From contig CAYLYF010000002.1 in assembly GCA_964387595.1 (NCBI GenBank), positions 7,403 through 71,402 on the forward strand: a stretch of 64,000 bases of DNA, in the 5' to 3' direction. Numbering within the stretch: position 1 is the stretch's first letter; every line of letters begins with the position of its first letter. The translations under genes and the position numbers were made by a program. Source of the DNA: an uncultured Thermodesulfobacteriota bacterium. Its GTDB lineage: Bacteria; Desulfobacterota; WTBG01; CAIYCZ01; CAIRTM01. Below, in pieces: positions 6,862-48,735 of this stretch. The notes beneath the pieces are model-generated. The model worked only from the letters and a program-made list of their open reading frames with translations. It was not told where the DNA came from and ran no database searches.

Positions 6862-8304
6862 CTATTTTTTCCAGAATTCGGGGATGAAAATTATAAGAAT
6901 GGTGAAAATTTCAAGTCTTCCCAGCAGCATCAGCAATATCAGGACCCATTTGCCGAAATCAGGTATAAACTGATAATTTTCATAAGGGCCGACGCCAGAA
7001 AGCCCGGGTCCTATATTTCCAAGAGAAGCCGCTGTTGAAGATACGGCTGTGATAAAATCCAGTCCGCAAAGGGACATGAAAAGTGATCCGAAAATAAACA
7101 GTAGAAGATAACAGACAACAAAGACACAGATACTTCTAATTATGGTTGGAGATACTGATTTATCGGCTATTTTTACGGATGTTACGGCATGGGGATGAAT
7201 CATGGTAATGAATTCACGGTAAACCATCTTAAAAAGAAGCATTATTCTGATGCATTTTATACCGCCTCCGGTGGACCCGGCGCTGCCGCCAATAAACATC
7301 AGGATAAACAATAACATTATGCTGAAGGCCGGCCACTGGTCAAAATTTGTGTTGCTGTAGCCTGTTGTGGTCATAATGGATGTTGCCTGAAAGGCTGAGT
7401 CTAAAAGCGATTTGGCAAAAGTCTGGCCATTGGCATACAGGCAAAGGGTAATTAATATTGTGGTTATAAAAAGAATAGAGAAATAAGTGAGAAATTCTCT
7501 ATCTTTAAAAAAGCTCTTAATTTTACCGTTAAAAAGTCTGTAATGAAGAGAAAAATTAATTCCGGCTGCAAACATGAAGATTATACAGACGATCTCAAGA
7601 CCCGGATTATTAAACGACTCAAGACTTTTGTTCTTTGTTGAGAAACCGCCGGTTGCCATTGTGGTAAATGAATGACAGACTGCGTTAAAAAAATCCATGC
7701 CGAAAAACATTAACAGCATTACCTGACTAATAGAAAGAAAGATGTAAATTTTCCATAAAGACCGGGCTGTTTCGGCAATTCGGGGGGTCAATTTTTCAAG
7801 AACCGGGCCAGGGACCTCGGCTTTATACAGCTGCATGCCCCCGATTCCAAGCAGCGGAAGTATCGCAATTGAAAACAGGATAATACCCATTCCGCCAAGC
7901 CACTGGATCATGCTTCTCCAGAACAGAATGGATTTTGGAAGTATTTCAACATCGGTTAAAACCGTTGCTCCGGTTGTTGTAAAGCCTGATACTGTTTCAA
8001 AATAGGTGTCAGTAAATGACGAAAATGTTGAATCAAAAATAAAAGGAAGTGAACCGAAGAAGGTCGCAAGAATCCACCCGAGGGCAACGATCAAAAATCC
8101 TTCCCGGTGTGATATTTGTTTTTTTAAAGGTTTGAAAAAACCAAGAAGTAATATTCCGGCCAGAATAGTGCTGATAGCAGCCGGAAAAAAAGACGTGTAC
8201 GTGTCTTCATTGTAAACCAATGCAGTAATGCCGGGTATGGTCATTGTGATGCCGAGAAAAAGAAGCAGCATACCCTGGGTTCGTAGTATCAGTGTGAAAG
8301 ACAT
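6862..8304 (-). CDS. trkH: TrkH/KtrB family K+ uptake membrane subunit
   Basis: This polytopic membrane protein has repeated selectivity-filter-like GxTTTG/TTTGYS motifs. Confidence 0.9.
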   Translation of the reverse strand: MSFTLILRTQGMLLLFLGITMTIPGITALVYNEDTYTSFFPAAISTILAGILLLGFFKPLKKQISHREGFLIVALGWILATFFGSLPFIFDSTFSSFTDTYFETVSGFTTTGATVLTDVEILPKSILFWRSMIQWLGGMGIILFSIAILPLLGIGGMQLYKAEVPGPVLEKLTPRIAETARSLWKIYIFLSISQVMLLMFFGMDFFNAVCHSFTTMATGGFSTKNKSLESFNNPGLEIVCIIFMFAAGINFSLHYRLFNGKIKSFFKDREFLTYFSILFITTILITLCLYANGQTFAKSLLDSAFQATSIMTTTGYSNTNFDQWPAFSIMLLFILMFIGGSAGSTGGGIKCIRIMLLFKMVYREFITMIHPHAVTSVKIADKSVSPTIIRSICVFVVCYLLLFIFGSLFMSLCGLDFITAVSSTAASLGNIGPGLSGVGPYENYQFIPDFGKWVLILLMLLGRLEIFTILIIFIPEFWKK

Positions 8305-8358
8305 ATTTATTCTGATTCTGGTTGTGTTGGAATATATTTGTAATAATTTATGTTTAAA

Positions 8359-8632
8359 CCACGGCTTTAGAGCAGTTTCTTTTTCACTATAGCCTTAAGA
8401 CAGCTGAACCAACAGTTTAAACAGCTTGAACGGTTTAATCAAATTAAAAATCTCAAATAAAACTGAAAAGCAGTAATGCCAAACCTTTTACATTATTTAC
8501 CCTTTTTGTTCTTTTTCGTTTTGGCATTCATTGGGCATTTGAACTTTGGTCTTTGGCTTTTAGATTGCACCGTACCTACCGTTATGCCTAAACGTTATGG
8601 CTACAATATTTAAGAAAATGCTCTAGCCGTGG
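8359..8632 (+). mobile_element. MITE-like element family R2, copy 1 (~274 bp) with terminal inverted repeats CCACGGCTTTAGAGCAGTTT ... AAAATGCTCTAGCCGTGG
   Basis: A second, ~80% similar copy lies in inverted orientation at 17065-17326. The ends form ~12-18 bp TIRs. The element is non-coding. Confidence 0.55.
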
Positions 8633-8677
8633 ATAATTACAAAAAATGAAATCTGAAAGGTGTAGAATAGATATGAA

Positions 8678-8708
8678 TCACTCACTTCTAACTTCTCACT
8701 TCTCACTT
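8678..8708. repeat. Tandem heptamer array, (GTGARRA)x4 read on the minus strand (TCACTCACTTCTAACTTCTCACTTCTCACTT on plus)
   Basis: The array is read directly. It sits immediately 3' of the trkA stop codon, and the same motif recurs at 14545, 16168 and 17338. Confidence 0.5.
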
Positions 8709-8713
8709 ATTAA

Positions 8714-10078
8714 TTACCAGTATTCAAGTTTAACGGTTAACGCTTTTTCAACTTTTTTTATCGCACTTGAAAGTGCGAAAATAATGACATGATCACCGGG
8801 CTGTATAACGCTGTCTCCACTGGGTATAATCAGTTTATCTTCTCTTAATATCGAGGCTATAATTGCATCTTTGGGAAATTTCACTTTAGAAAGAGGCTTA
8901 TTTACAATGTCTGAAGTCTCCAGAGCAACGGCCTCAATCGCCTCTGCTTTTTTGTCATGGAATGTTGTGGCTGAAAGTACTTTGCCTTTGCGAATAAAAT
9001 GCAGTATTCGGTTGATCGCACAAAGGTTTGGATTTACAACCAGATCAACACCGAGCTTTGAAACAAACTGTGTATATGAGATATTATAGATGAGAGATAT
9101 GACTTTTTTCGCACCTTTCTGTTTTGCAAGCAAAGATAACAGTATATTGTCTTCCTCATCTTCTGTGACAGCTATAAAAATATCAGTGTTTTCAATCTGC
9201 TCTTCATCAAAAAGTTTTTCCATGTCACCGTCATGATGAAGAACCAGTGTCTTATCAAGCTCCTCAACTATTTTAAGTGATTTTGCTTCATCAGCCTCTA
9301 TCAGTTTTGTTGATATGTTCAGTTTCTCAAATTCTTTTGCCAGAGGAACATCAATATTTCCACCGCCGACAATCATTGCTCTTTTTACCGGGTTGTACTC
9401 TTTTCCAAAAAAAGTAAGCAGGGAATTTATGCTGTCATTGGTTGTGATCGCGTAAATGATGTTGTTAAAATAAATTTTATCGTAACCTCGGGGAATGATT
9501 ACCTCGTTGTCACGGTAAATAGAGGCGACCACTAAATCATTTAAACCGCTTTTTTCTCTTAAGTCTTTTAGTTCAATACCATCATAGAAAATCGGGTTTT
9601 CAACTTTTAATCCGATAATTTTAATTCTGCCGTTATTGAAATCAACGACATCAATTGCACCGGGTACCTGCAGGAGTTTCATGATTGAAGCGACAGCTTC
9701 GTAATCCGGGTTAATTAAATAGTCAACATTCAGGCTGCTGTCATTGAATATCTCCGGATTTTCAATGTACTCAAAATTTCTTACTCTGGCCACTTTTGTA
9801 GATGATTTAGTCTGTGATGATGCAACCGCACAGGAAATCAAGTTGACTTCGTCACTGTCGGTAACAGCAATAAGCATGTCTGATTCTTTTATTCCTGCCT
9901 GCTGAAGTATTTTTAAGGAACTGCCGGTTCCTTCGATTGCCTGAACATCAAGTGCGTCTCTGATCTTGTTTGTTTTATCTATATCTTTATCTATAACGAT
10001 TATGTCTTCTTTTTCTAAAGAAAGACTTTGGGCAAGATGATAACCAATGTCACCGGCTCCGATTACGATTATACTCAT
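8714..10078 (-). CDS. trkA: TrkA K+ transport NAD-binding peripheral subunit (tandem RCK domains)
   Basis: The N-terminus has a GxGxxG Rossmann motif (IVIGAGDIGYHLA). A second RCK repeat is present and the length is 454 aa. Confidence 0.9.
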   Translation of the reverse strand: MSIIVIGAGDIGYHLAQSLSLEKEDIIVIDKDIDKTNKIRDALDVQAIEGTGSSLKILQQAGIKESDMLIAVTDSDEVNLISCAVASSQTKSSTKVARVRNFEYIENPEIFNDSSLNVDYLINPDYEAVASIMKLLQVPGAIDVVDFNNGRIKIIGLKVENPIFYDGIELKDLREKSGLNDLVVASIYRDNEVIIPRGYDKIYFNNIIYAITTNDSINSLLTFFGKEYNPVKRAMIVGGGNIDVPLAKEFEKLNISTKLIEADEAKSLKIVEELDKTLVLHHDGDMEKLFDEEQIENTDIFIAVTEDEEDNILLSLLAKQKGAKKVISLIYNISYTQFVSKLGVDLVVNPNLCAINRILHFIRKGKVLSATTFHDKKAEAIEAVALETSDIVNKPLSKVKFPKDAIIASILREDKLIIPSGDSVIQPGDHVIIFALSSAIKKVEKALTVKLEYW

Positions 10079-25522: not shown

Positions 25523-26194
25523 ATGGTAACAATAAAAAATAAAAAGCCTTCCCATGTTTTTGAAGTAAACGACTGTGCCATAATCACCCGGATGGGCGGT
25601 GTAGGGACTGCGATAAATCTTAGAGAATTGAAGGAAAGACTTATCAGCTGTTCAATTGACTGTTTATATTATCATTTCTGTGAAACCCTTATTCGTCCTA
25701 CATTTGATAACCCTGAATATAGAAATGATTTTGCCCTGTGGTCTGCTTATAAATTAAGGGATAGAGTCCTGGCAGAACGCCTTGGAATTATTAACCCATA
25801 CAGTTTTGATGATTTGGAAGGTTTAAGAGAAAGGGTGTTAGAAATTATAGACGAGCGTCTAAGCAGCCTTAATTATATACCTTCTGTTCCAAAAGGTGAT
25901 GAGTTTATTTTTATGCGGGCCGCAACTGTTGTTTTTGATACTGGTATTGTATTACACCAGCCTGAAGATCTTTTTTTAAAACTGCCTTTAATGAGCAGAA
26001 GTACGATTTATTATCACTTTATGGAAGCAAGGAGACGTACTCAGGACAGGGTAGATGATTTTACGTTCTGGATAAAGTTTCATCCTGAAAAAAATCAGCA
26101 AATAATTGAAGAATTAGCAAAAATTGATTTCTATTTTTTAAATTTAAATGAGCTGAAAACGGTCCTGATCGATACACTTAAAAATATCCATTAA
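25523..26194 (+). CDS. Conserved hypothetical protein (223 aa), co-directional and adjacent to the treT-like gene
   Basis: No motif was recognised and there is no HAD DxDGT signature. It is tightly packed, with a 6-bp gap, ahead of the GT4 gene. Confidence 0.5.
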   Translation: MVTIKNKKPSHVFEVNDCAIITRMGGVGTAINLRELKERLISCSIDCLYYHFCETLIRPTFDNPEYRNDFALWSAYKLRDRVLAERLGIINPYSFDDLEGLRERVLEIIDERLSSLNYIPSVPKGDEFIFMRAATVVFDTGIVLHQPEDLFLKLPLMSRSTIYYHFMEARRRTQDRVDDFTFWIKFHPEKNQQIIEELAKIDFYFLNLNELKTVLIDTLKNIH

Positions 26195-26200
26195 ACGGTT

Positions 26201-27463
26201 ATGATGAAACCAAAAACATTAAAAGATTATAAAAAAATTGCAGGAAAAATTGCGATCTCACAGCTGGAACAGCTAAGTCAGAATCTAAAAGGGGCAAAAG
26301 TTGTTCATGTAAATTCAACCCGTGAAGGCGGCGGCGTTGCTGAGATACTTAACTGGATGATCTCTTTAATGAACGATCTGGGTCTTAATGCCAGTTGGGA
26401 AGTAATCGAGGGTAATGAGAAATATTTTGATGTAACCAAGGCTTTTCATAACGGTATGCAGGGAACTCCGATCAGGCTGACCGGTGAGATGATAAAGAAT
26501 TATGAAGATACTCTAAATACAAATTTTAAACGTTTACAGCCGGTACTTGAAGAGGCTGATTTTGTGTTTATTCATGATCCGCAGCCGGCAGCTTTTCTTG
26601 ACATGTGTCCCAATAGAAAAGGGAAGTGGGTCTGGAGATGTCATATTGATTCAAGTAATCCGTCAAGAGAGGTTTGGAAATATTTAAGAAGTAAGGTTGT
26701 TAATTATGATGCAAGTATATTTTCAATGCCGACTTTTGCCCAGCCTTTACCCCACCCGCAGTTTGTGATTGCACCCAGTATTGACCCTTTAAGTGAAAAG
26801 AACTGTGAAATTAATAAAAAGGAAATTAAGGAGACATTAAAGAAATATAATATACCTGATAATGTTCCAATACTCACCCAGGTATCAAGGTTTGATAGAT
26901 TCAAGGATCCTTTGGGAGTGATCGAGGCATTTAATGAACTGACCAAGACAATCCCTGCTGAACTTGTTCTGGCCGGAGGGAGGGCTACGGATGATCCGGA
27001 AGGGCAGGTCGTTTTAGAAGAAGTACAAAAAGCAGCAGCTGATAATAAACACATACATGTATTGATGCTGCCCAGTGATGCTCACCGGACTATAAATGCA
27101 TTACAGCGGGCATCGACTATTATTATTCAGAAATCGATTCAGGAAGGTTTCGGGCTTACCGTTACAGAAGCACTGTTAAAAGAAAAACCTGTGATCGGCG
27201 GCAATGTGGGGGGGATAAAGCTTCAGCTCCATAACTATTATACCGGTTTTCTTGTTGAAACCCCGGAAGGAGCTGCTTTAAGGATCAGAGAGCTTCTCCA
27301 TGATAATGAAAAAATTAAAAGAATGGGGAGAACGGCAAAACAGTTTGTAATCGAAAACTTTTTGCTCACCCGGCATCTCAGGGAATACCTCACTCTTCTC
27401 GTCGGTTTAAAGTGCAATCTTACAAATTATGTACTTACCGAATCAAAGGATTTCAACTCATAA
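26201..27463 (+). CDS. treT: Retaining GT4 glycosyltransferase resembling trehalose glycosyltransferring synthase TreT
   Basis: Motifs shared with archaeal/bacterial TreT as recalled from memory include VHVNSTxxGGGVAEIL, WRCHID, PSIDPLSEKN, TQVSRFD, REGFGLTVTEA and GGIKxQ. The ORF is 420 aa. Confidence 0.65.
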   Translation: MMKPKTLKDYKKIAGKIAISQLEQLSQNLKGAKVVHVNSTREGGGVAEILNWMISLMNDLGLNASWEVIEGNEKYFDVTKAFHNGMQGTPIRLTGEMIKNYEDTLNTNFKRLQPVLEEADFVFIHDPQPAAFLDMCPNRKGKWVWRCHIDSSNPSREVWKYLRSKVVNYDASIFSMPTFAQPLPHPQFVIAPSIDPLSEKNCEINKKEIKETLKKYNIPDNVPILTQVSRFDRFKDPLGVIEAFNELTKTIPAELVLAGGRATDDPEGQVVLEEVQKAAADNKHIHVLMLPSDAHRTINALQRASTIIIQKSIQEGFGLTVTEALLKEKPVIGGNVGGIKLQLHNYYTGFLVETPEGAALRIRELLHDNEKIKRMGRTAKQFVIENFLLTRHLREYLTLLVGLKCNLTNYVLTESKDFNS

Positions 27464-27478
27464 TAAAATTTTATACTT

Positions 27479-28963
27479 ATGGTTAATCCACAAAAAAGGC
27501 TTGTTATTGTTTCTAACCGTCTGCCCGTTATTATTGATAAAATTAACGGCGGCTGGGAAGTCAAGGAAGGGTCCGGCGGTCTGGTCACAGCTCTTGCTCC
27601 TGTACTGAGGAACAGGGGCGGTGTATGGATCGGATGGCCCGGTACTGTTATGAATGATGAGGTTGAGACACTTCTTACTTCGGAAACCAGGGACACCGGT
27701 TATCAGTTGAAACCGGTAACACTGACCTCGTATGAAATTGATAAGTATTATCATGGATTTGCCAATGAAATTATTTGGCCGCTTTTTCATGATCTGCAGT
27801 CAAGATGTAACTTTGATCCTGAGTTCTGGCAGGTTTATCAGGCTGTTAATAAAAAATTTGCTGAAGTGATTCTTCAAAATACGAAGACGGATGATTATAT
27901 ATGGGTTCATGATTATCAGTTGATGAATGTTGCAAAAGAAATGCGTGTTTCTAATCCGCAAATCAAGGTCGGATTTTTTATGCACATTCCTTTTCCTTCC
28001 CTTGATATTTTTCTAAAACTGCCATGGAGACATGAACTGCTAAGTTCACTTCTTGAATATGATCTGATCGGTTTTCAAACGATGCGGGACAGAAGAAATT
28101 TTATACAGTGTGTAAAGACTCTTGTAAAAGATGTTGCCGTGCAGGGTAAGGGACAGGTACTAACAGTTCTGTCCAGAGATAGAAAAATAAAAGTCGGTCA
28201 TTTCCCCATAAGTATTGATTATAAATATTTTGTTGATAAGACAGCAACCCAAGAGGTGTCAGACTGTGCCTGGTTTATACATGAAAATTTAAATGATCGC
28301 CAGATTCTACTTGGAATTGACAGACTTGATTATACGAAGGGAATCATCGAAAGACTGAAAGCTTTTGAAAATGCTTTAATCAGATATCCTGAATTAAGAG
28401 GTAAGGCATCATTTATACAGATCGTTGTACCCAGCAGAACCCGAATAACCGAGTATAAGACCCTGAGATCTGAAATAGAGGAGACCGTGGGAAATATCAA
28501 CGGCAGGTTTACAAAATACGGATGGGTGCCTATTCATTATATATTCGGCAGCCTCGATTTTTATGAACTGCTTGCATATTATAAGTCTTCTGAAATTGCT
28601 GTTATCACCCCGCTTAAAGACGGTATGAATCTGGTGGCAAAAGAATACTGTGCCTGCAGTCTTGATGGGAATGGCGTGCTGATCTTAAGCGAATTTGCCG
28701 GTGCTTCTGCACAGCTGCACCGGGGCGCCATTATGGTTAATCCCTATGACGTAGATAAGGTGGCGGATGCTATCTATCAAGCATTTAAAATGAATGCTGA
28801 TGAAAAAATAACCCGAATGAGAAAAATGAGACACTCAATTAAAAAACAGGATGTCTTTTGGTGGGTGGACTCTTTCCTGCAGGCGGCTTTTACGGAAAAT
28901 CTTAATAACTTTCCTGTCCTTGAACATTATGATTATATGCCTCAAATCGAAATTTCAACATAG
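27479..28963 (+). CDS. otsA: Alpha,alpha-trehalose-phosphate synthase (GT20, OtsA-like)
   Basis: N-terminal VSNRLP...GGLVTAL...WIGWPG is present and GT20 motifs run throughout (HDYQL, IDRLDYTKG, PLKDGMNLVAKEY). The ORF is 494 aa. Confidence 0.85.
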   Translation: MVNPQKRLVIVSNRLPVIIDKINGGWEVKEGSGGLVTALAPVLRNRGGVWIGWPGTVMNDEVETLLTSETRDTGYQLKPVTLTSYEIDKYYHGFANEIIWPLFHDLQSRCNFDPEFWQVYQAVNKKFAEVILQNTKTDDYIWVHDYQLMNVAKEMRVSNPQIKVGFFMHIPFPSLDIFLKLPWRHELLSSLLEYDLIGFQTMRDRRNFIQCVKTLVKDVAVQGKGQVLTVLSRDRKIKVGHFPISIDYKYFVDKTATQEVSDCAWFIHENLNDRQILLGIDRLDYTKGIIERLKAFENALIRYPELRGKASFIQIVVPSRTRITEYKTLRSEIEETVGNINGRFTKYGWVPIHYIFGSLDFYELLAYYKSSEIAVITPLKDGMNLVAKEYCACSLDGNGVLILSEFAGASAQLHRGAIMVNPYDVDKVADAIYQAFKMNADEKITRMRKMRHSIKKQDVFWWVDSFLQAAFTENLNNFPVLEHYDYMPQIEIST

Positions 28964-29823: not shown

Positions 29824-30609
29824 TTAAATTGTTTTATCCATTAAGTCTTTTATTTCCGGCCAGTAATCCTTGTCCATCATGTGACGGGTATCAATTTTTG
29901 AAAGGGATTTCAAGAGTGAAGATCTAATCCCTGGAAACTGATCTGAAAGATCCGTTATCAGATTCTTTATTCTCAATCTGTTTCCAGCTGTTTTTTTTGC
30001 AGGACATTTGTTGTCAGGAATGGGAAATCCGGCACTTTTGATAAAATTAATTATGATGTTTTCGTGTACATAACATAAGGGCCGAATAACGGTGTTCCTT
30101 CCGTCTTCAGAGTACAGCAGCGGAGACATGGATTTTATTCTGCCGTTAAAAAACTGGTTTAAAAGAAGTGTTTCTATAAAATCATCCGCATGATGACCCA
30201 GTGCAATCTTATTATAATTATTTTCAAATGCAATTCTATAAAGTATCCCGCGTCTCAGGCGTGAACAAAACGAGCAGATACTTTTCCCCGGTGTTTTAAA
30301 ACCCGATAATACTTCAGATATATTTGATCTTTCTGTTATAGGATCTAGATCAGAATAATTTTTGATGATATATTCGGAGATCAGAGAAGTGTCGAAATCA
30401 GGGAAACCCGGATCTATGGTTACAGGGTGAAGCTCAAAGTCAACCGGTGCTTTTTTACGCAGCTCATAAAGAACATGAAGCAATGTCCAGCTGTCTTTTC
30501 CTCCCGAAAGTGCCACAAGTATTCTGTCGCCATTTTTTATGAGGTTGAAATCACCTATGGCTTTGCCTGTTTTTGTTGTTAAGTACTTAGTCAGATTCAT
30601 GAAGGTCAA
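29824..30609 (-). CDS. ttcA: tRNA 2-thiocytidine biosynthesis protein TtcA-like PP-loop ATPase
   Basis: The SGGKDS PP-loop and the CSFCSRLRRG Fe-S cysteine motif typical of TtcA are present. Confidence 0.75.
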   Translation of the reverse strand: MTFMNLTKYLTTKTGKAIGDFNLIKNGDRILVALSGGKDSWTLLHVLYELRKKAPVDFELHPVTIDPGFPDFDTSLISEYIIKNYSDLDPITERSNISEVLSGFKTPGKSICSFCSRLRRGILYRIAFENNYNKIALGHHADDFIETLLLNQFFNGRIKSMSPLLYSEDGRNTVIRPLCYVHENIIINFIKSAGFPIPDNKCPAKKTAGNRLRIKNLITDLSDQFPGIRSSLLKSLSKIDTRHMMDKDYWPEIKDLMDKTI

Positions 30610-30648: not shown

Positions 30649-31959
30649 TTATTCTTTTCTAAGATAGGACAGTTCTTTTGGAAGCGGGGTGCTGTTTCCC
30701 ATATTATCTTCGCCATAATTGACTTTTGCTAGAATCTGGAGGTCTTTAATGGCAAGGGTTTCGCCGTGAAATTCAATTTCTGTGATGTTCTCTTTTTTTA
30801 TCATGCCGCCTGCCCACATAAGATCTATAACACTTGAGGCATCAAATTCTTTTTCATTCGCGATCATTGTAACTTTTGAGCCGTAATGATTGGCCACTTT
30901 TGCAACGAGTGTTGAGGGCCTGAGATGAAAGCCAAGTCCATCAGGAACATTCACAGCAGCTGAGCTAAAAACACTGTATCTATTTAGAATATTTTGAGCA
31001 ATGGTATTACCCTGTTTTATAAAAAAAGTATAATAATATAAAGAAAAATTGATGACAGTATCTGTAACTTTTTTGCGTTTTATGATTTTTGATATTCTTT
31101 GATGGGTGCATTCGTTACGGATAGTGGTTTCATGGCGTTCAATGAAGTGACAGAGCTCCTTTGCGATACCGAGCAAATGAAGTGTTATGGAGATGTGACC
31201 GCGTAAAGTGCGGAGGTCATTGTCCTGAGATTCAAGCGGTGTTTTATGAATATAAGTGTCATACATTGACTGCGCATTATGAGTCGCAGATTCGATATGC
31301 CGAAGAGTCTCTTCATTGATCCTGTCCGGGATGTAGTCTGAATCAAGATTTTTTGCTGGGATCTTTTTGGTAAAGATAACTTTTGCGGAAGCATTAAAGG
31401 AATTGGTATATTCTGTCGCAACTCTGTTAACTTTTGCTTTGACATCAGTTGTCTCGGATTCATCAATATTTTGAGGTAATGTTTTAACAGCAATTGACTC
31501 AATAAAATCTTCATCTTTTAATTTGCCCTTCGGGATCTTTAATCCCAGGCTTTCGGCTTCATTTATAAGGTTTTTAAACAGGAGAAGTATTGATTCATCA
31601 AGAAAAGACAATTGCTTTTTTGCATCATTCGTAAAATCTTTTACATATTTACCTTCAAGCTTGTAATGATTTATCCTGCGGATGATATGGCTAATGGTGT
31701 ATGCTGTCCTGGAAAAGTTTCTGATCGATGCGATCAGTTCACCAAAAAATAACCATTTTTTATTATTTCTTGCGCCATGGTCATCAAGAAAATCTTCAAG
31801 CTCCATCGATTCTTTAACCAGTGATACATAGTGCTTTTTGTTAAGATTGTTTTCTATGTTTCCGGTAAAGCATGACGCAAAATTAAGGATATCAAAGGCG
31901 GGTTTTGCCGCGAGTTTTGAAAAGTCATCTTCAGTTATAATTTCAGAAAAAAATTTCAT
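30649..31959 (-). CDS. Protein with C-terminal HPr (phosphocarrier) domain fused to a ~330-aa N-terminal region of unknown function
   Basis: The last ~90 aa (VNVPDGLGFHLRPSTLVAKVANHYGSKVTM...LMWAGGM...) match the HPr fold signature, including the His in GFHLRPS. The N-terminal two thirds has no recognisable motif. Confidence 0.6.
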   Translation of the reverse strand: MKFFSEIITEDDFSKLAAKPAFDILNFASCFTGNIENNLNKKHYVSLVKESMELEDFLDDHGARNNKKWLFFGELIASIRNFSRTAYTISHIIRRINHYKLEGKYVKDFTNDAKKQLSFLDESILLLFKNLINEAESLGLKIPKGKLKDEDFIESIAVKTLPQNIDESETTDVKAKVNRVATEYTNSFNASAKVIFTKKIPAKNLDSDYIPDRINEETLRHIESATHNAQSMYDTYIHKTPLESQDNDLRTLRGHISITLHLLGIAKELCHFIERHETTIRNECTHQRISKIIKRKKVTDTVINFSLYYYTFFIKQGNTIAQNILNRYSVFSSAAVNVPDGLGFHLRPSTLVAKVANHYGSKVTMIANEKEFDASSVIDLMWAGGMIKKENITEIEFHGETLAIKDLQILAKVNYGEDNMGNSTPLPKELSYLRKE

Positions 31960-31977: not shown

Positions 31978-33954
31978 TTAGAAAATAGATTGTAAGACTG
32001 CTGTATTTTTTAAATCGACAATTAATAATCCAAGATCATTTTTGCAACTTCTGCTGGATGTTTTTTCTATTAAGCGGTTTATGAATGCGCAGCTTTCCTT
32101 TATTAAATTATCCGAAATTCCAGTTTTCCCTGTATTCTTATGGCTAATTAAAGCGCTGTAAACATTTGACAGGATATTTCTGGATTGATTTAGAAGTTCA
32201 GGATTATTCTTTAGAATGGATGTGATCTCAAATGCATTTTTATAATATGCCAGCACATGTTTTTTTAAAGGATTATTATTAACAAGAATTAAATTACGAT
32301 AATTTCTAAAAGCTTCAAGCATTGACAGTTTAGAAGCGCTGGTTCTGGTTGTTTCTGAAAGGGAGAAAAGGATAGGGCAGTAGGTCAAACGAACATCAAC
32401 CTCTTTTGGAATGCTGCTGTCAGCTTCAAAGTTATAATGCGTTGAAGTAATATAACCCTCTGCTTTGTAGCTGATATTTGTACTGCATTCAGCAGGAAGC
32501 GTTATTGTATAATAACCCGAACTGTCTGTTGTTGTTGTCGCTCCATGGTCGGCCTTAACCGTCGCATCCGCAACAGGATTGCCTGAAAATCTGTCATAAA
32601 CATGACCTTTTAGTATACCCGTTGAAGAAGGGGTTATGACAATATCCTGCTGCAGATAATCTCCGGTGTCTACGGAAACCGGGGCTGCAGCCTGTCCGTA
32701 ACACTCATGTGATACGGACAGGGTATATGTCCCCGGCGAAATATTTTCCAGCGTATATGTACCGTCAATATCTGTATCACCTGATGTAAGAAGTGTATCG
32801 TCAATACTGACCTGAGCGCCCTTAATTTTATGTCCGTCAATGCCGTCAGTAATTTCTCCGGATATTGTTGCCAACGGGTCAAGGTTTATGTCAATTGTAA
32901 CTGAAATTCCGTATAAAAAAGTTGCTGGAATCACAAAGTCAGAGTAACCGATTTTTGCTGCAGTTATATTTGAAGAACAGATCGATGCATAAACTTTATA
33001 TTCACCGATAATATTACTGAAACTTATTTCACCGGTATCGGTAGTCAATTCAACATCGCTAATAGGATTGCCGGTTATAGAATCCGTAATTATTCCTTTT
33101 ACCAGGCCAAAATTATTCTTATTAGGAGTCAGTGTGAAATCAAGCTCGTTTGCCATTGATAGGGGAAGCGTTTTTAAGGATTTATATGAAAACTGGTAGC
33201 CTGAAGCTGAGACAAAAATAGTGGTCAGTCCGGAAGGTGCTTTAATCGTAAAAGTACCGTCTTTTGCCGAGTCGACTTTTGCATTTAAACAAATTATATC
33301 TGCGTCCGTTATTATTGCGCCGGTGCATTGGTCCGTAATTGTACCGGTAATAATGACTTCATCATTATTGTGAGGCGCCAGCTGCACATTCATTATAGTT
33401 GTTATGATCGGCAGGATCTGAGTAGAGGATGAAATAGCAGATTCAAAATCTTCAGCACAGACGGTAAGACTGTTCACGCCAGAAGGCGTGGCCATATTAA
33501 AAAGACCGTCTTCGTCAGTGACTGAAATACCGCCGAGATTGCTCATAACATATGCATTTTTAATCGGCTTGCCAGACGTTTTGCCGGTTATTTTGCCTTT
33601 AATATAACCTGTCACCGTTGATGACGGGATGAGCAGTATGTCAATATTTGTTGTCTGTCCGGGATTCGCAGGGATGCCGGATATAAAATTTGATTTATAA
33701 CCGGGAGCTGAAAAGATTATTCGATATATATCCGGCGGAACCCGCAGAGAAAATGTTCCTGCAGTTGTAAACGTTGAAACTCCGGTTGTGGTTGTTATGG
33801 CTGTGCCCGGAATTAGACTGTTCCTGAATGCATCGTGTATGGTCCCTTTTATAAAGGCTGGCTGTATGGCATAGCTGGTTGATGTTAATATTAGACATAT
33901 TATCAAAAATACGGGTATGTATAAGATGATCGCTGGTCTGGTTTTATCTGCCAT
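31978..33954 (-). CDS. Secreted protein with multiple carboxypeptidase-regulatory-like (CarbopepD_reg/Ig-like beta-sandwich) repeats
   Basis: A signal peptide starting at MADKTRPAIILYIPVFLII is followed by repeated ~80-aa units with the G(x)I(x)D(x)2TGxPI(x)2A pattern. Confidence 0.6.
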   Translation of the reverse strand: MADKTRPAIILYIPVFLIICLILTSTSYAIQPAFIKGTIHDAFRNSLIPGTAITTTTGVSTFTTAGTFSLRVPPDIYRIIFSAPGYKSNFISGIPANPGQTTNIDILLIPSSTVTGYIKGKITGKTSGKPIKNAYVMSNLGGISVTDEDGLFNMATPSGVNSLTVCAEDFESAISSSTQILPIITTIMNVQLAPHNNDEVIITGTITDQCTGAIITDADIICLNAKVDSAKDGTFTIKAPSGLTTIFVSASGYQFSYKSLKTLPLSMANELDFTLTPNKNNFGLVKGIITDSITGNPISDVELTTDTGEISFSNIIGEYKVYASICSSNITAAKIGYSDFVIPATFLYGISVTIDINLDPLATISGEITDGIDGHKIKGAQVSIDDTLLTSGDTDIDGTYTLENISPGTYTLSVSHECYGQAAAPVSVDTGDYLQQDIVITPSSTGILKGHVYDRFSGNPVADATVKADHGATTTTDSSGYYTITLPAECSTNISYKAEGYITSTHYNFEADSSIPKEVDVRLTYCPILFSLSETTRTSASKLSMLEAFRNYRNLILVNNNPLKKHVLAYYKNAFEITSILKNNPELLNQSRNILSNVYSALISHKNTGKTGISDNLIKESCAFINRLIEKTSSRSCKNDLGLLIVDLKNTAVLQSIF

Positions 33955-34049
33955 GGTTCTCAGGTTCCATGAGGATGAAAAATAAAGGGTTAATAAAACC
34001 GGCTGGTTATTCACTTGAATGATTTATGCTAAACATTCTGCTGGGTGGA

Positions 34050-34256
34050 TTAATCTTCGGTCTGTAATTCTTCTTTAGGCTGTGATGCTGGTTTTTTTGC
34101 TTTAATTTTATCAAGAAGTCCTGCCGGCTCAAACTCAATTTCAAATTCTTCTGCTTTATCATCAACATCTGGTAAATTTTCGATCTCTTTTGAACGGTTT
34201 GATCTTTCTTCTTCAGTCAGGTGATTCTCTGTTAGCCTTTTATCAGTTTTGTACAT
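34050..34256 (-). CDS. Hypothetical small acidic protein (68 aa)
   Basis: The ORF comes from the track only. It is highly charged (E/D/K-rich) with no recognisable domain. Confidence 0.3.
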   Translation of the reverse strand: MYKTDKRLTENHLTEEERSNRSKEIENLPDVDDKAEEFEIEFEPAGLLDKIKAKKPASQPKEELQTED

Positions 34257-45059: not shown

Positions 45060-46102
45060 ATTAAAAGTGTTGCAGAGGGAAGGGCTATTGAGAAAACGCC
45101 TTCTTCTAAAGGGGATTCAATAAAAGGAACCAGACCGGCACCGGTCCCGTTTTCCGATAAAGCTGTTGTTGAAAAAAAAGAAGAAATTAAAGTAGAAAAA
45201 GTTGAACAAAAATCTGCGAACAGTCCTGAACCTTTACCTTTTTCTGAAAATCCGGTGAATCAGACGAAACAGACCAAGGTTAAGATTACAAGGGAACTGC
45301 AGCAGTTAAGCATGTCGCTTCAGATGATTCCGGTTAGAACAACATTTCAAAAAATGGCCAGAGTTGTCAGAGATCTTGCAAAGAAAGGTAATAATCTTGT
45401 TGCTTTTAATACCAATGGCGAGGATACAATGCTTGATAAAAGTGTTATTGACAGGATAGGTGACCCCTTAATTCATCTTGTTAGAAATTCTGTTGACCAT
45501 GGTATTGAACTGTCACCTGATGATAGAGTGAAAGCGGATAAGGATAAAACCGGAAATATAGAGCTTAATGCTTTTCATAAGAGCGGGAATATTCATATTG
45601 AGATTAAGAATGATGGAAGGGGACTGGACCGGGAAGCGATACTTAAAAAAGTGACTGAAAAAGGTCTCGTTAGTGAAGGGCAGACCCTGAGTGAACGTGA
45701 TATTTATAATCTTGGTTCTTCCCGGCTTTTCAACTGCAAAGAAGGTTACGGATGTGTCAGGTCATGGAGTGGGTATGGATGTGGTTAAGAGAAATATAAC
45801 ATACCGACCCTTTCTGTTGTAAAGTCAATACCGCCGTCAACTGAGGATTTAACAACAATAATTAATAAGGGGGATATGATCAAAATACGGGAATTATTGT
45901 TGACAGTGGATCGGAAGTTTTTGATATACAGGTTGATGCAGTTGAAGAAACACCTACATTTGGCACAGCAGTAAGTACAAATTTTATAAAAGGAATCGCA
46001 AAAACAAAAGGCGGAGCAAAGATCCTTTTAAATATTGAAAAAGTTCTGACCACAGATGAACTGCAATCAGTTTCTGAATCAACCATTACTGAAAGTAATT
46101 AA
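45060..46102 (+). pseudogene. cheA: Histidine kinase CheA, degraded: no P1/P2 domains, frameshift in the P4 kinase domain, internal deletion before the P5 (CheW-like) remnant
   Basis: The 45060-45790 frame encodes a K/E-rich linker plus P3/P4 motifs (DPLIHLVRNSVDHGIE, DDGRGLD). A -1/+1 frameshift near 45700-45710 moves the conserved LPGFSTAKKVTDVSGHGVGMDVVKRNI into another frame, which stops at ~45822. Positions 45868-46102 encode only the C-terminal half of a CheW-like domain (GIIVDSGSEVFDIQ...AKILLNIEKVL) with no start codon. Confidence 0.75.
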
Positions 46103-46107
46103 CTGAT

Positions 46108-46911
46108 TTGATGGACCTGAAATTATTTAATCAATTTAGAGATCTCGTTTATAAAAACTGCGGAATAAACTTAAATGAGTCAAAAGTTACGATGGTCAGT
46201 TCGCGCATCGCCAAAAGGATGCGTGTTTTAGATATAAAAGACCATTCAGATTATCTTGAATATCTCATAAAGGATAATAGCGGTGATGAGATAACAAAGT
46301 TCATGGATGTTATCTCGATAAATGTAACAAGCTTTTTTAGAGAAGCGGAACATTTTGATCTGCTTGAAAAGGTAATAACGGAAATTGTTGAAAGCGGCCA
46401 AAAAAAAATCAGGATTTGGTGCGCAGCGTCATCAACCGGCGAGGAACCCTTTACAATTGCAATGGTTTCCAACATTATCACAGCAGATAAATTGATAGAT
46501 CTGAAAATTTTAGCTACAGATATATCCACTAAAGTTCTGGCAGATGCGAAAGCGGGTAAATATAGTATTGATAAAATAAAAACGATCCCAAAAGCGCTGC
46601 TAAGAGAGTATTTTACCAGGGAAACAACAGGAGATAAAAACCTTTTCTGTGTGAAGGATGAGCTGAAAAGGCTGATTGCTTTTAGACGGCTTAATCTATT
46701 TAAGCCGCCTTTTCCGATGAAGGGTCCGATGGATGTTGTATTCTGCAGAAATGTGATGATGTATTTTGATAATCAGACAAGAACACGACTTTTGTCTGAG
46801 ATCTACAGACTCTTAAAGCCCGGCGGTTATCTTATAACCGGGCATGCTGAAAATCTGACCTCTGTAAAGAATAATTTTAAATGTGTACAGCCTTCTGTTT
46901 TTCAGAAGTAA
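46108..46911 (+). CDS. cheR: Chemotaxis protein methyltransferase CheR
   Basis: The 267-aa ORF has the CheR N-terminal helical domain and SAM-binding motifs (IWCAASSTGEEPFTIAM). Confidence 0.9.
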   Translation: MMDLKLFNQFRDLVYKNCGINLNESKVTMVSSRIAKRMRVLDIKDHSDYLEYLIKDNSGDEITKFMDVISINVTSFFREAEHFDLLEKVITEIVESGQKKIRIWCAASSTGEEPFTIAMVSNIITADKLIDLKILATDISTKVLADAKAGKYSIDKIKTIPKALLREYFTRETTGDKNLFCVKDELKRLIAFRRLNLFKPPFPMKGPMDVVFCRNVMMYFDNQTRTRLLSEIYRLLKPGGYLITGHAENLTSVKNNFKCVQPSVFQK

Positions 46912-46964
46912 ATTTAATCGAATAATTTATTTGAAGAGATAATAAATAGTTCTGGAGACTCTGG

Positions 46965-47444
46965 TTGAAAACAAAAGTAATCGGAATATCAGATATGATG
47001 GTCTCAAAAACACCCAATGAAACGCTGATAACGTATTCACTCGGTTCATGTCTTGGAGTTGTGATTTATGATCCAGTTGTCCACGTAGCCGGGCTTCTCC
47101 ACAGCATGCTGCCGCTTTCAAAGATTGATCCGCAAAAAGCAAAAAAATCGCCTTTTATGTTTGTAGATACCGGAGTACCGCTGCTTTTCAGGGAAGCTTT
47201 TAAATTGGGGGCTGAAAAACAAAGACTTATCGTTAAAGCAGTAGGGTGCTCTTCACTTTTGAAAAAAAAAGGATTTTTTAAAATCGGTGAAAGAAACTTC
47301 ACTGTTCACAGGAAGTTATTATGGAAAAATAATATTCTGATAGAAGGTCAGGATGTCGACGGCAACGGCTCAAGAACCGTAAAAATACAGGTTAAGAGCG
47401 GTAATGTTATTATTAAATCCGGCGGAGAAAAGAATGAATTATAA
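46965..47444 (+). CDS. cheD: Chemoreceptor glutamine deamidase CheD
   Basis: The catalytic Cys/His motifs LGSCLGV and GLLHSMLP are present and the ORF is 159 aa. Confidence 0.85.
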   Translation: MKTKVIGISDMMVSKTPNETLITYSLGSCLGVVIYDPVVHVAGLLHSMLPLSKIDPQKAKKSPFMFVDTGVPLLFREAFKLGAEKQRLIVKAVGCSSLLKKKGFFKIGERNFTVHRKLLWKNNILIEGQDVDGNGSRTVKIQVKSGNVIIKSGGEKNEL

Positions 47445-47489
47445 AATTTAATTTTAACAAATCGTATTTCCCTAATTGGAGGCTGATAA

Positions 47490-47876
47490 ATGTCATTTAA
47501 TATATTAATTGTTGATGATTCAAAAACTATCCGATCCGTTATAAAGAAAACACTTGATATTGCCGGGGTGCCGATCGGTGAGTTATATGAAGCAGAAAAT
47601 GGTCAGGTTGCACTTGATGTGATGAAGGATAACTGGGTTGACCTGGTATTTGCCGATATCAATATGCCTGTAATGACGGGTATTGAAATGATCCAAAAAA
47701 TGTCTGAAGATAAAATACTTGAGAATATGCCGGTAATCATTGTGGCAACTGAAGGAAGTAAAACCAGGATAGAAGAGTTTCTTAAACAGGGGGTCAGGGC
47801 CTATATCAGAAAACCCATAAGTCCTGAAGCATTAAGAAATATCGTTAAAGAAGTAATGGGGGATTATGATGAATGA
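47490..47876 (+). CDS. cheY: Chemotaxis response regulator CheY
   Basis: A single receiver domain with DD (VDDS) and D (FADINMP) is present, with T and K positions conserved. The ORF is 128 aa. Confidence 0.85.
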   Translation: MSFNILIVDDSKTIRSVIKKTLDIAGVPIGELYEAENGQVALDVMKDNWVDLVFADINMPVMTGIEMIQKMSEDKILENMPVIIVATEGSKTRIEEFLKQGVRAYIRKPISPEALRNIVKEVMGDYDE

Positions 47877-48078
47877 TGAAAATAATGAACTTCTGATAAG
47901 ACTCTGTTGTGATGTGTTTGAAAATCTGTCTTTTATGTTTGGTGAAACAATTGATTTTGATGAGGCTGAAACAAAGACGATTTCACTTGAAGAATGGAAT
48001 GAAATTGTTTAAAGCGAAGAATATCTGGCTCTTAACATTGAGGACGAACCCATATTAATTAAAGCAAAGGTTGAATAG
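47866..48078 (+). pseudogene. Possible CheC/CheX-like phosphatase gene fragment (two short in-frame pieces separated by TAA)
   Basis: A 47-aa ORF (…LCCDVFENLSFMFGETIDF…) followed by a 22-aa piece resembles only the N-terminal region of CheX/CheC. The assignment is weak. Confidence 0.3.
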
Positions 48079-48081
48079 TCT

Positions 48082-48735
<654 letters not shown>

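Follow-up and report, generated by a model that had tools for sequence, protein, structure and literature searches.

A phosphocarrier domain of the HPr superfamily is fused to a novel helical domain in a widespread family of bacterial proteins

The window, a stretch of 64,000 nucleotides from an uncultured Thermodesulfobacteriota bacterium, contains a gene for an HPr-domain protein that carries a novel domain fused to the HPr and is a member of a widespread and undescribed two-module family that spans several bacterial phyla. Its 436-aa product consists of three parts, namely an eight-helix domain of ~330 aa, an HPr-type domain and a tail of 24 aa. The reading favoured here, to which a probability of about 0.4 is assigned, is a phospho-switch of the regulatory phosphotransferase system (PTS), in which a new effector domain would sense the state of HPr in cis, with the adjacent sigma factor as the likely target in Planctomycetota. 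The gene and its parts are the following.

30649..31959, minus strand: complete open reading frame of the fusion protein, 436 aa with the stop codon at 30649-30651 (open reading frame list and translation)
30973..31959, minus strand: N-terminal all-helical domain, aa 1-329 (AF2 models and family profile)
31444..31548, minus strand: linker between helices 4 and 5, aa 138-172, poorly conserved and modelled with pLDDT 52-63
31258..31314, minus strand: conserved stripe of helix 6, aa 216-234, with the HNxQSxYD motif (conservation counts)
31132..31149, minus strand: H271-F-I-E274-R275-H276 motif at the C-terminal end of helix 7 (translation HFIERH)
30724..30969, minus strand: HPr-fold phosphocarrier domain, aa 331-412 (Pfam PF00381, Foldseek and translation)
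30916..30933, minus strand: active-site motif G343-F-H345-L-R347-P348 (translation GFHLRP and alignment with HPr structures)
30832..30834, minus strand: codon of Ser376, the Ser46 equivalent (aligned with Ser46 of 3le5 and 3le1)
30652..30723, minus strand: conserved C-terminal tail, aa 413-436, absent from canonical HPr (conservation)

The open reading frame starts with ATG, and the same Met start is found in full-length homologues sharing 30-93% identity. A reading of the sequence made earlier without database searches (the sequence-only reading) had placed the gene between ttcA and a CarbopepD-repeat gene, and this is indeed its position. The neighbours, a PP-loop/TtcA-like gene at 29824..30609 and a gene for a CarboxypepD_reg-repeat protein at 31978..34014, share the minus strand with the fusion gene and are separated from it by gaps of 39 bp and 18 bp, respectively. 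The strand is an addition to that reading, as are the multi-phylum size of the family, the conserved 24-aa tail and the invariant pairing with a sigma factor gene in Planctomycetota. A scan for promoters and terminators around the fusion gene returned counts not above the shuffled expectation.

Homologues of the fusion protein were collected in two ways. A word-indexed search revealed 127 relatives, nearly all of them ~436 aa long and full length, which belong to Desulfobacterota/Thermodesulfobacteriota MAGs and to Desulfonema limicola (dnl_43550). When an HMM of the N-terminal domain alone was run against 1.84 billion representatives, at least 484 clusters at 50% identity matched with E<=1e-3, and 408 with E<=1e-10. 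Among the 150 matches listed, the N-terminal domain begins near residue 1, except in P0187, P0250 and a few fragments, total lengths are either ~430-460 or ~500-576 aa, and almost all near-full-length entries continue for about 100-200 residues beyond the domain. The HPr module was present in every near-full-length member that was listed and checked, and all atypical members inspected carry the HPr motif. In the longer class (~520 aa) an insertion of 80-130 aa lies within the HPr domain, after the Ser46 helix, while P0187 has an extra N-terminal TIR domain and P0250 a trailing fragment of a metallophosphatase. Counting one genome per species, at least 533 species genomes carry the family, so the fusion occurs in hundreds of bacterial species; the hosts are Thermodesulfobacteriota, many Planctomycetota, Nitrospinota, Nitrospirota and Candidatus Accumulibacter, the last with its own subfamily of 528 aa. 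The source annotations name these proteins either ‘HPr family phosphocarrier protein’ or ‘hypothetical’, and no earlier description of the architecture was found in a literature search, part of which was poorly targeted. Since more than 240 full-length homologues retain the arrangement of N-terminal domain and HPr, a chance architecture can be excluded, and the hundreds of independent full-length members likewise rule out a fusion artefact or misassembly.

The C-terminal module is an HPr-superfamily domain, divergent from canonical HPr. Pfam PTS-HPr (PF00381) matches aa 335-400 with E=4e-8; the score of 33.6 bits exceeds the gathering cutoff, which is 23, and 40 of 40 aligned family members match the model as well. 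The NCBIfam model TIGR01003 scores 36.9 bits, which is under its cutoff of 47.9 and marks the module as divergent. In a phmmer comparison with PDB sequences, ‘GLGFHLRP’ was aligned with ‘GLHARP’ of the HPr proteins of Mycoplasma capricolum and Thermoanaerobacter; this alignment equates His345, Arg347 and Ser376 with His15, Arg17 and Ser46, respectively. In canonical HPr, His15 is phosphorylated by Enzyme I (EI) from phosphoenolpyruvate (PEP), Ser46 is the target of HprK, and partners universally bind to the face that helices 1 and 2 form around His15. An AF2 model of the fusion protein, built on a family alignment of 40 sequences (mean pLDDT 87.1, full-length pTM 0.81), gives aa 331-412 the secondary structure beta-alpha-beta-beta-alpha-beta-alpha, that is, the open-faced beta-sandwich of the HPr fold. 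Foldseek against the PDB matched this unit with ~30 HPr structures at target TM values of 0.6-0.82, the closest being 3lnw, 3le1 and 3lfg (TM about 0.8, rmsd 1.7-1.8 A). The proposal that the C-terminus is an HPr domain with a phosphorylatable histidine is thus borne out by the Pfam profile, motif alignment and fold.

Conservation counts refer to 240 members with a length of 400 aa or more. His345 and Arg347 are each retained in 237 and Pro348 in 238 of them, and the residue equivalent to Ser46 is serine in 196. The module is a genuine HPr and looks catalytically competent. It could be argued that it is a structural relic devoid of phosphotransfer, and that all function resides in the helical domain, given that it falls under the NCBIfam cutoff, that tblastn with E. 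coli HPr and NPr does not recover it at 1e-3, and that the ~520-aa class tolerates a large insertion inside it. Yet each of the three active-site residues persists in at least 237 of the 240 members, which come from at least four phyla; such retention would hardly be expected if the active site had no role, and makes a relic most improbable.

Regarding the N-terminal domain, AF2 models of this region (pLDDT 87, pTM 0.81/0.87) contain eight helices at residues 10-33, 41-60, 67/70-98, 104-137, 173-194, 216-236, 247-277 and 295-328, which the linker at aa 138-172 divides into two groups of four; this poorly conserved linker includes the conserved L161-P162. Residues of six kinds (His, Arg, Asp, Glu, Asn and Ser) form a near-invariant cluster on helices 2, 3, 6 and 7. 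The best-conserved element of the domain is HFIERH, with His271 retained in 239, Glu274 in 216, Arg275 in 238 and His276 in 234 of the 240 members. The stripe of helix 6 comprises Glu216 (232/240), Arg220 (222/240), His227 (226/240), Asn228, Ser231 (218/240) and Asp234 (237/240), so that retention along it is 222-237 of 240 with the exception of Ser231. Other conserved positions are Glu55 (227/240), Asp59 (236/240), Ala63 (234/240), Asn66 (233/240) and His91 (217/240), and, in helix 7, Arg253 (233/240) and His261 (227/240). The spacing 216/220/227/231/234 (i/i+4/i+7) would put the conserved residues of helix 6 on a single face, and the spacing 253/257/261...271/274/275 suggests the same for helix 7. 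Measured by these counts, the constraint on the N-terminal domain is equal in strength to that on the HPr active site.

Nevertheless, aa 1-334 match no family in Pfam, searched with the fusion protein and 40 relatives, or in NCBIfam, searched with the fusion protein. Scans of the fusion protein with PADLOC and PHROGs likewise gave no match to the N-terminal domain, matches to SieB, DUF3253 and the like are at noise level, and its profile retrieved only junk from PDB sequences (E>=0.07). The sequence-only reading had stated that the ~330 N-terminal residues are not EI, EIIA, HprK or FPr, and this proved correct: the region is no known PTS domain, DhaM and DhaL being ruled out by the same searches, while the C-terminus aligns with HPr profiles. 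An anti-sigma factor of the Rsd/AlgQ type was also rejected, as hhalign of the domain profile against E. coli Rsd gave a probability of 0.2%. Because no match was found in current family or structure libraries, the fusion protein probably passes a nutrient-sensing phosphate signal to a new output.

The only non-generic Foldseek matches of the helical part are CHAD proteins, which raises the question of whether it is a very divergent polyphosphate-binding module of this type that tethers HPr to granules or couples polyphosphate to the PTS. PptA (6rn5) was matched with E about 0.01-0.02 and a probability of 0.97-0.98, and the Chlorobium CHAD-polyphosphate complex (6qva) with a probability of 0.57-0.77. 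In its all-helical nature, its size of ~330 aa, its eight long helices and its conserved His and Arg residues the domain resembles CHAD (PF05235; PptA 6rn5, CtCHAD 6qva; ~300 aa), and ‘long’ CHAD in particular (PMC6537752), and a polyphosphate accumulator, Ca. Accumulibacter, hosts one subfamily of the fusion proteins. The structural match is weak, however, with TM of 0.27-0.30 and rmsd of about 17 A amid GPCR-bRIL junk, and it did not improve when the N-terminal domain was searched alone (TM about 0.3). Sequence and profile similarity are also lacking: none of 40 members matches Pfam CHAD (PF05235) at E<=10, a PDB search with the domain profile retrieved no CHAD chain with E<=10, and hhalign against an alignment of YgiF-type CHAD, itself narrow, gave a probability of 0.2%. 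CHAD is characterised by a pair of four-helix bundles in pseudo-twofold symmetry, by a conserved surface that is highly basic and by its frequent occurrence in polyphosphate operons (PMC6537752). In the N-terminal domain no internal duplication or twofold repeat is detectable, the pI ranges from 5.3 to 9.3 across 20 members and is thus not strongly basic, and the invariant residues are a mixture of acids and bases. Polyphosphate gene context was not seen either: no ppk, ppx or CHAD neighbours were observed, and tblastn with the YgiF CHAD domain found nothing in the window and 86 related loci. A CHAD identity is therefore regarded as distinctly unlikely.

The relative arrangement of the modules was assessed from the model and from residue covariation. 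In the AF2 model helix 8 joins the first HPr strand through a linker of only two residues, and this short connection together with the full-length pTM of 0.81 argues for a fixed geometry between the two domains. Mean-field direct-coupling analysis (DCA) was performed on 285 sequences, a shallow alignment with Neff of 224, and recovered known contacts inside HPr (A356-V363, V355-L407, V336-L407 and F344-A411). Within the N-terminal domain it gave a ladder between helices 4 and 8 (A113-F305, D112-Y309, K115-F312), couplings between helices 3 and 7 (H91-G254, H91-H261) and between helices 2 and 3 (L54-F72, E55-A77), and the pair A77-H276. The couplings A77-H276 and E55-A77 would place the HFIERH motif beside helices 2 and 3, and the ladders suggest that helices 2, 3 and 7 contribute their conserved residues to one site and that the two helix groups are packed intimately rather than being independent bundles. 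The top 100 couplings also include inter-domain pairs, which link helices 1 and 2 of HPr (V352, A356, H358, I378, L380) to helices 4-6 of the N-terminal domain, and pairs between the tail and the N-terminal domain (W69-Y415, K239-Y432, I256-M420). The former are suggestive, given the shallow alignment, of the HPr helix 1/2 face being packed against the N-terminal domain. The latter suggest that the tail packs on the N-terminal domain as well; it has the consensus N-Y-G-E-D-x-M-G-N-x-x-P-L-P-x-E-L-S-Y-L-R, with Glu417 retained in 231, Pro427 in 227 and Tyr432 in 222 of 240 members, and AF2 models it as a short hairpin and a helix.

Analysis of about 1.3 Mb of flanking DNA revealed no EI, EIIA-Ntr, HprK or RapZ gene conserved beside the family. 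A tblastn search of the window and 86 related loci with E. coli PtsI, PtsN, Crr, RapZ, RpoN and NPr found nothing in the window, and a lone PtsN-like open reading frame in one of the loci (L014). In Planctomycetota, a gene for a sigma-70-family protein was found by tblastn immediately upstream of the family gene, divergently transcribed, at 46 of 46 loci. Its product is ~270-330 aa long and has RpoS and RpoD as top NCBIfam matches, all under the cutoffs; the gaps between the two genes are 44-838 bp, mostly about 200 bp. The family proteins at these 46 loci share 32-98% identity (median 51%), and the GC content of the loci is 58-74%. Genes for HemW, ParB, BshC and a metallophosphoesterase are each retained in 19-30 Planctomycetota loci, so that the sigma factor pair is by far the most conserved linkage; it is confined to Planctomycetota.

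A regulatory device of the PTS-Ntr type with a new output, as had been proposed from the sequence, is plausible and remains the best reading of these data. A regulatory-type Enzyme I would phosphorylate His345 from PEP, and the helical domain would read the phosphorylation state of this residue in cis, with HPr helices 1 and 2, the face used for partner binding, packed against it. The helical domain might itself take the phosphoryl group at a His/Arg site (H271/R275/H276, H261, H91), or, alternatively, its binding of a partner or ligand might change with the state of HPr. The fusion would then serve a regulatory PTS without transporters as an output branch contained in one polypeptide, and in Planctomycetota its likely target would be the divergently encoded adjacent sigma-70-family factor. 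A phospho-switch acting in cis is supported by the competent-looking HPr, the equal constraint on the N-terminal domain, the two-residue linker and the inter-domain DCA couplings, and also by the sigma factor adjacency, kept at all 46 loci despite the 32-98% identity of the family proteins. Planctomycetes and their relatives possess a regulatory EI but lack PTS transporters (PMC2405797). A precedent for control of sigma factors by HPr comes from E. coli, in which the helical anti-sigma factor Rsd is bound by HPr in its dephosphorylated form (PDB 4xwj; PMC6055147). Against it stand the lack of a PTS neighbour at the loci analysed, the limitation of the sigma factor link to Planctomycetota, the dissimilarity of the N-terminal domain to Rsd and the shallow alignment used for DCA. 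Moreover, if the HPr face is buried on the N-terminal domain, access of EI would require opening of the structure or action in trans. The fuller version of the phospho-switch, in which the N-terminal domain is a new phospho-responsive effector or acceptor lacking described relatives and the fusion, as the output of transporter-less regulatory PTSs in Planctomycetota, Thermodesulfobacteriota, Nitrospinota and related groups, directly controls the Planctomycetota sigma factor, is considered rather unlikely. If true, it would make the protein a PEP-sensing regulator of a sigma factor contained in a single polypeptide in this phylum.

The same conserved site may be viewed in a different way. The polar cluster of acids and bases is typical of a catalytic site or a phosphate/metal site rather than of a protein interface, DCA groups E55, A77, H276, H91 and H261, and the model attaches HPr to the N-terminal domain in an apparently rigid manner. 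These features would fit an enzyme-like acceptor: the conserved site would hold a small molecule or a nucleotide, and phosphorylated HPr would pass the phosphoryl group of His345 on to it. An analogy is offered by DhaM, whose HPr-like domain phosphorylates ADP held by the all-helical DhaL. Yet the N-terminal domain matches neither Dak2/DhaL nor any other enzyme family, and no metabolic gene is conserved alongside it, which leaves an enzymatic role unlikely. In another variant the direction of transfer is reversed: the N-terminal domain would replace EI as a phosphodonor, autophosphorylating on a conserved His from a small-molecule donor and passing the phosphoryl group to His345 for signalling to separate partners. 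The absence of a linked EI gene from the window and the 86 loci, the several invariant His residues and the DCA coupling of the HPr face to the N-terminal domain are in line with this idea, which is purely speculative. It has to be considered very unlikely, as the domain bears no resemblance to a kinase or a PEP-utilising fold and Planctomycetes are reported to have EI (PMC2405797).

Compared with known systems, the C-terminal module shares with HPr/NPr (PF00381, TIGR01003) the fold, the G-x-H-x-R-P site, the Ser46 equivalent and the surface of helices 1 and 2. Canonical HPr/NPr proteins are, however, stand-alone proteins of ~85-90 aa, whereas here the module forms the C-terminal quarter of 436 aa and differs in its conserved 24-aa tail, its sub-cutoff NCBIfam score and the 80-130-aa insertion in one subclass. 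In FPr, DhaM and MTPs, too, HPr is joined covalently to a further phosphorelay domain, but the partners in those proteins are recognisable PTS domains, namely EIIA-Fru, EIIA-Man and EI, while the partner found here matches no family. The E. coli HPr-Rsd-sigma70 system resembles the fusion family in that the phospho-state of HPr is tied to sigma factor activity through an all-helical partner, which is paralleled here by the pairing with a sigma factor gene. Unlike Rsd, the N-terminal domain is twice the size and shows no similarity to it, and the sigma factor link is a genomic one restricted to Planctomycetota.

Many bacteria have no sugar transporter and yet retain EI and HPr, and in some cases HprK. 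To our knowledge, the targets of such regulatory PTS chains outside Proteobacteria are largely unknown. The family described here would be a concrete and conserved candidate output for them: its phosphocarrier stays attached at all times to the domain that is its presumptive target, and the gene itself would thus specify where the signal goes. The hosts are environmentally important and poorly studied, and include sulfate reducers, Planctomycetota, nitrite-oxidising Nitrospinota and Nitrospirota and polyphosphate-accumulating Accumulibacter. The HPr label in databases masks a domain of ~330 aa whose conservation equals that of the HPr active site, and the sigma factor pairing in Planctomycetota provides a directly testable hypothesis joining carbon and energy status to transcription.

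Gene neighbourhoods of the family differ by clade and consist mostly of housekeeping genes. In the clade of the window the order is thrS-infC-rpmI-rplT-pheS-pheT-IHF-MerR-small ORF-CarbopepD-family gene. In Desulfonema it is sufC/sufD-like-family gene-ispD, with rpoD 4.7 kb upstream, and in another Desulfobacterota clade the family gene is divergent from ffh.

By far the most conserved neighbour of the family gene in Planctomycetota is a gene of the sigma-70 family. This RpoS/RpoD-like gene, encoding about 270-330 aa, lies divergently beside the family gene in all 46 Planctomycetota-type loci counted (within loci L027-L086). The mutual identity of the family proteins in these loci is only 32-98%, yet the pairing with the sigma gene is kept. 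In one example, locus L035, the pair is arranged as follows:

6971-7957 (-), sigma-70-family gene
7950-9290 (+), family gene

The only PTS-like gene found close to any family member is an ORF resembling PtsN (EIIA-Ntr), located about 4 kb downstream of the family gene in one Thermodesulfobacteriota MAG (locus L014, 13415-13705), which shares 34% identity with E. coli PtsN over 98 aa.

The domain architecture of the family varies. In about a quarter of the members the HPr domain is interrupted by an insertion of 80-130 aa, placed after the Ser46 helix ('YDASSPLELFRANEKINA...') and before the next strand. This long class, with proteins of about 500-576 aa, is represented by P0171, P0122, P0209 and P0116/P0117, and also comprises the Ca. 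Accumulibacter proteins (the cluster of P0173, 528 aa). The 759-aa protein P0187 carries a TIR_2 domain at its N-terminus (aa 5-115, E=3.5e-24), followed by a linker of about 130 aa, the N-domain, and an HPr domain with the insertion, an arrangement reminiscent of defence/NADase-type fusions.

Three family members, P0211, P0243 and P0191, lack the HPr His345. In P0211 and P0243, Arg347 and the helix-6 stripe of conserved N-domain residues (E216, R220, H227 and S231) are also missing, and the helix-7 motif H271/R275/H276 is retained. The joint loss of the HPr histidine and the stripe may be a natural co-loss, or alternatively may reflect an alignment or frameshift artefact. P0191 has lost the HPr triad and retained the N-domain residues.

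Within the window, the MerR gene and the CarbopepD-repeat gene flank a highly acidic ORF of 68 aa (34050-34256, -) that lacks any Pfam match. This ORF is likely to be a genuine, conserved gene, since 8 related loci have a homologous small ORF at the corresponding place (cluster c16). The window also contains a compact trehalose-related cluster (25523-28963, +), next after which comes the gene of a tandem-USP protein:

25523-26194 (+), DUF5752 protein
26201-27463 (+), TreT-type trehalose synthase
27479-28963 (+), GT20/OtsA trehalose-6-phosphate synthase

The presence of both TreT-type and GT20/OtsA genes thus places two alternative trehalose routes side by side. A chemotaxis gene cluster (window 45255-48735, +) includes a CheA-like fragment, CheR, CheD, CheY and a CheB-like gene; the CheA-like and CheB-like frames look broken up, the short ORFs measuring 177, 115 and 80 aa, and may represent frameshifts or pseudogenes.
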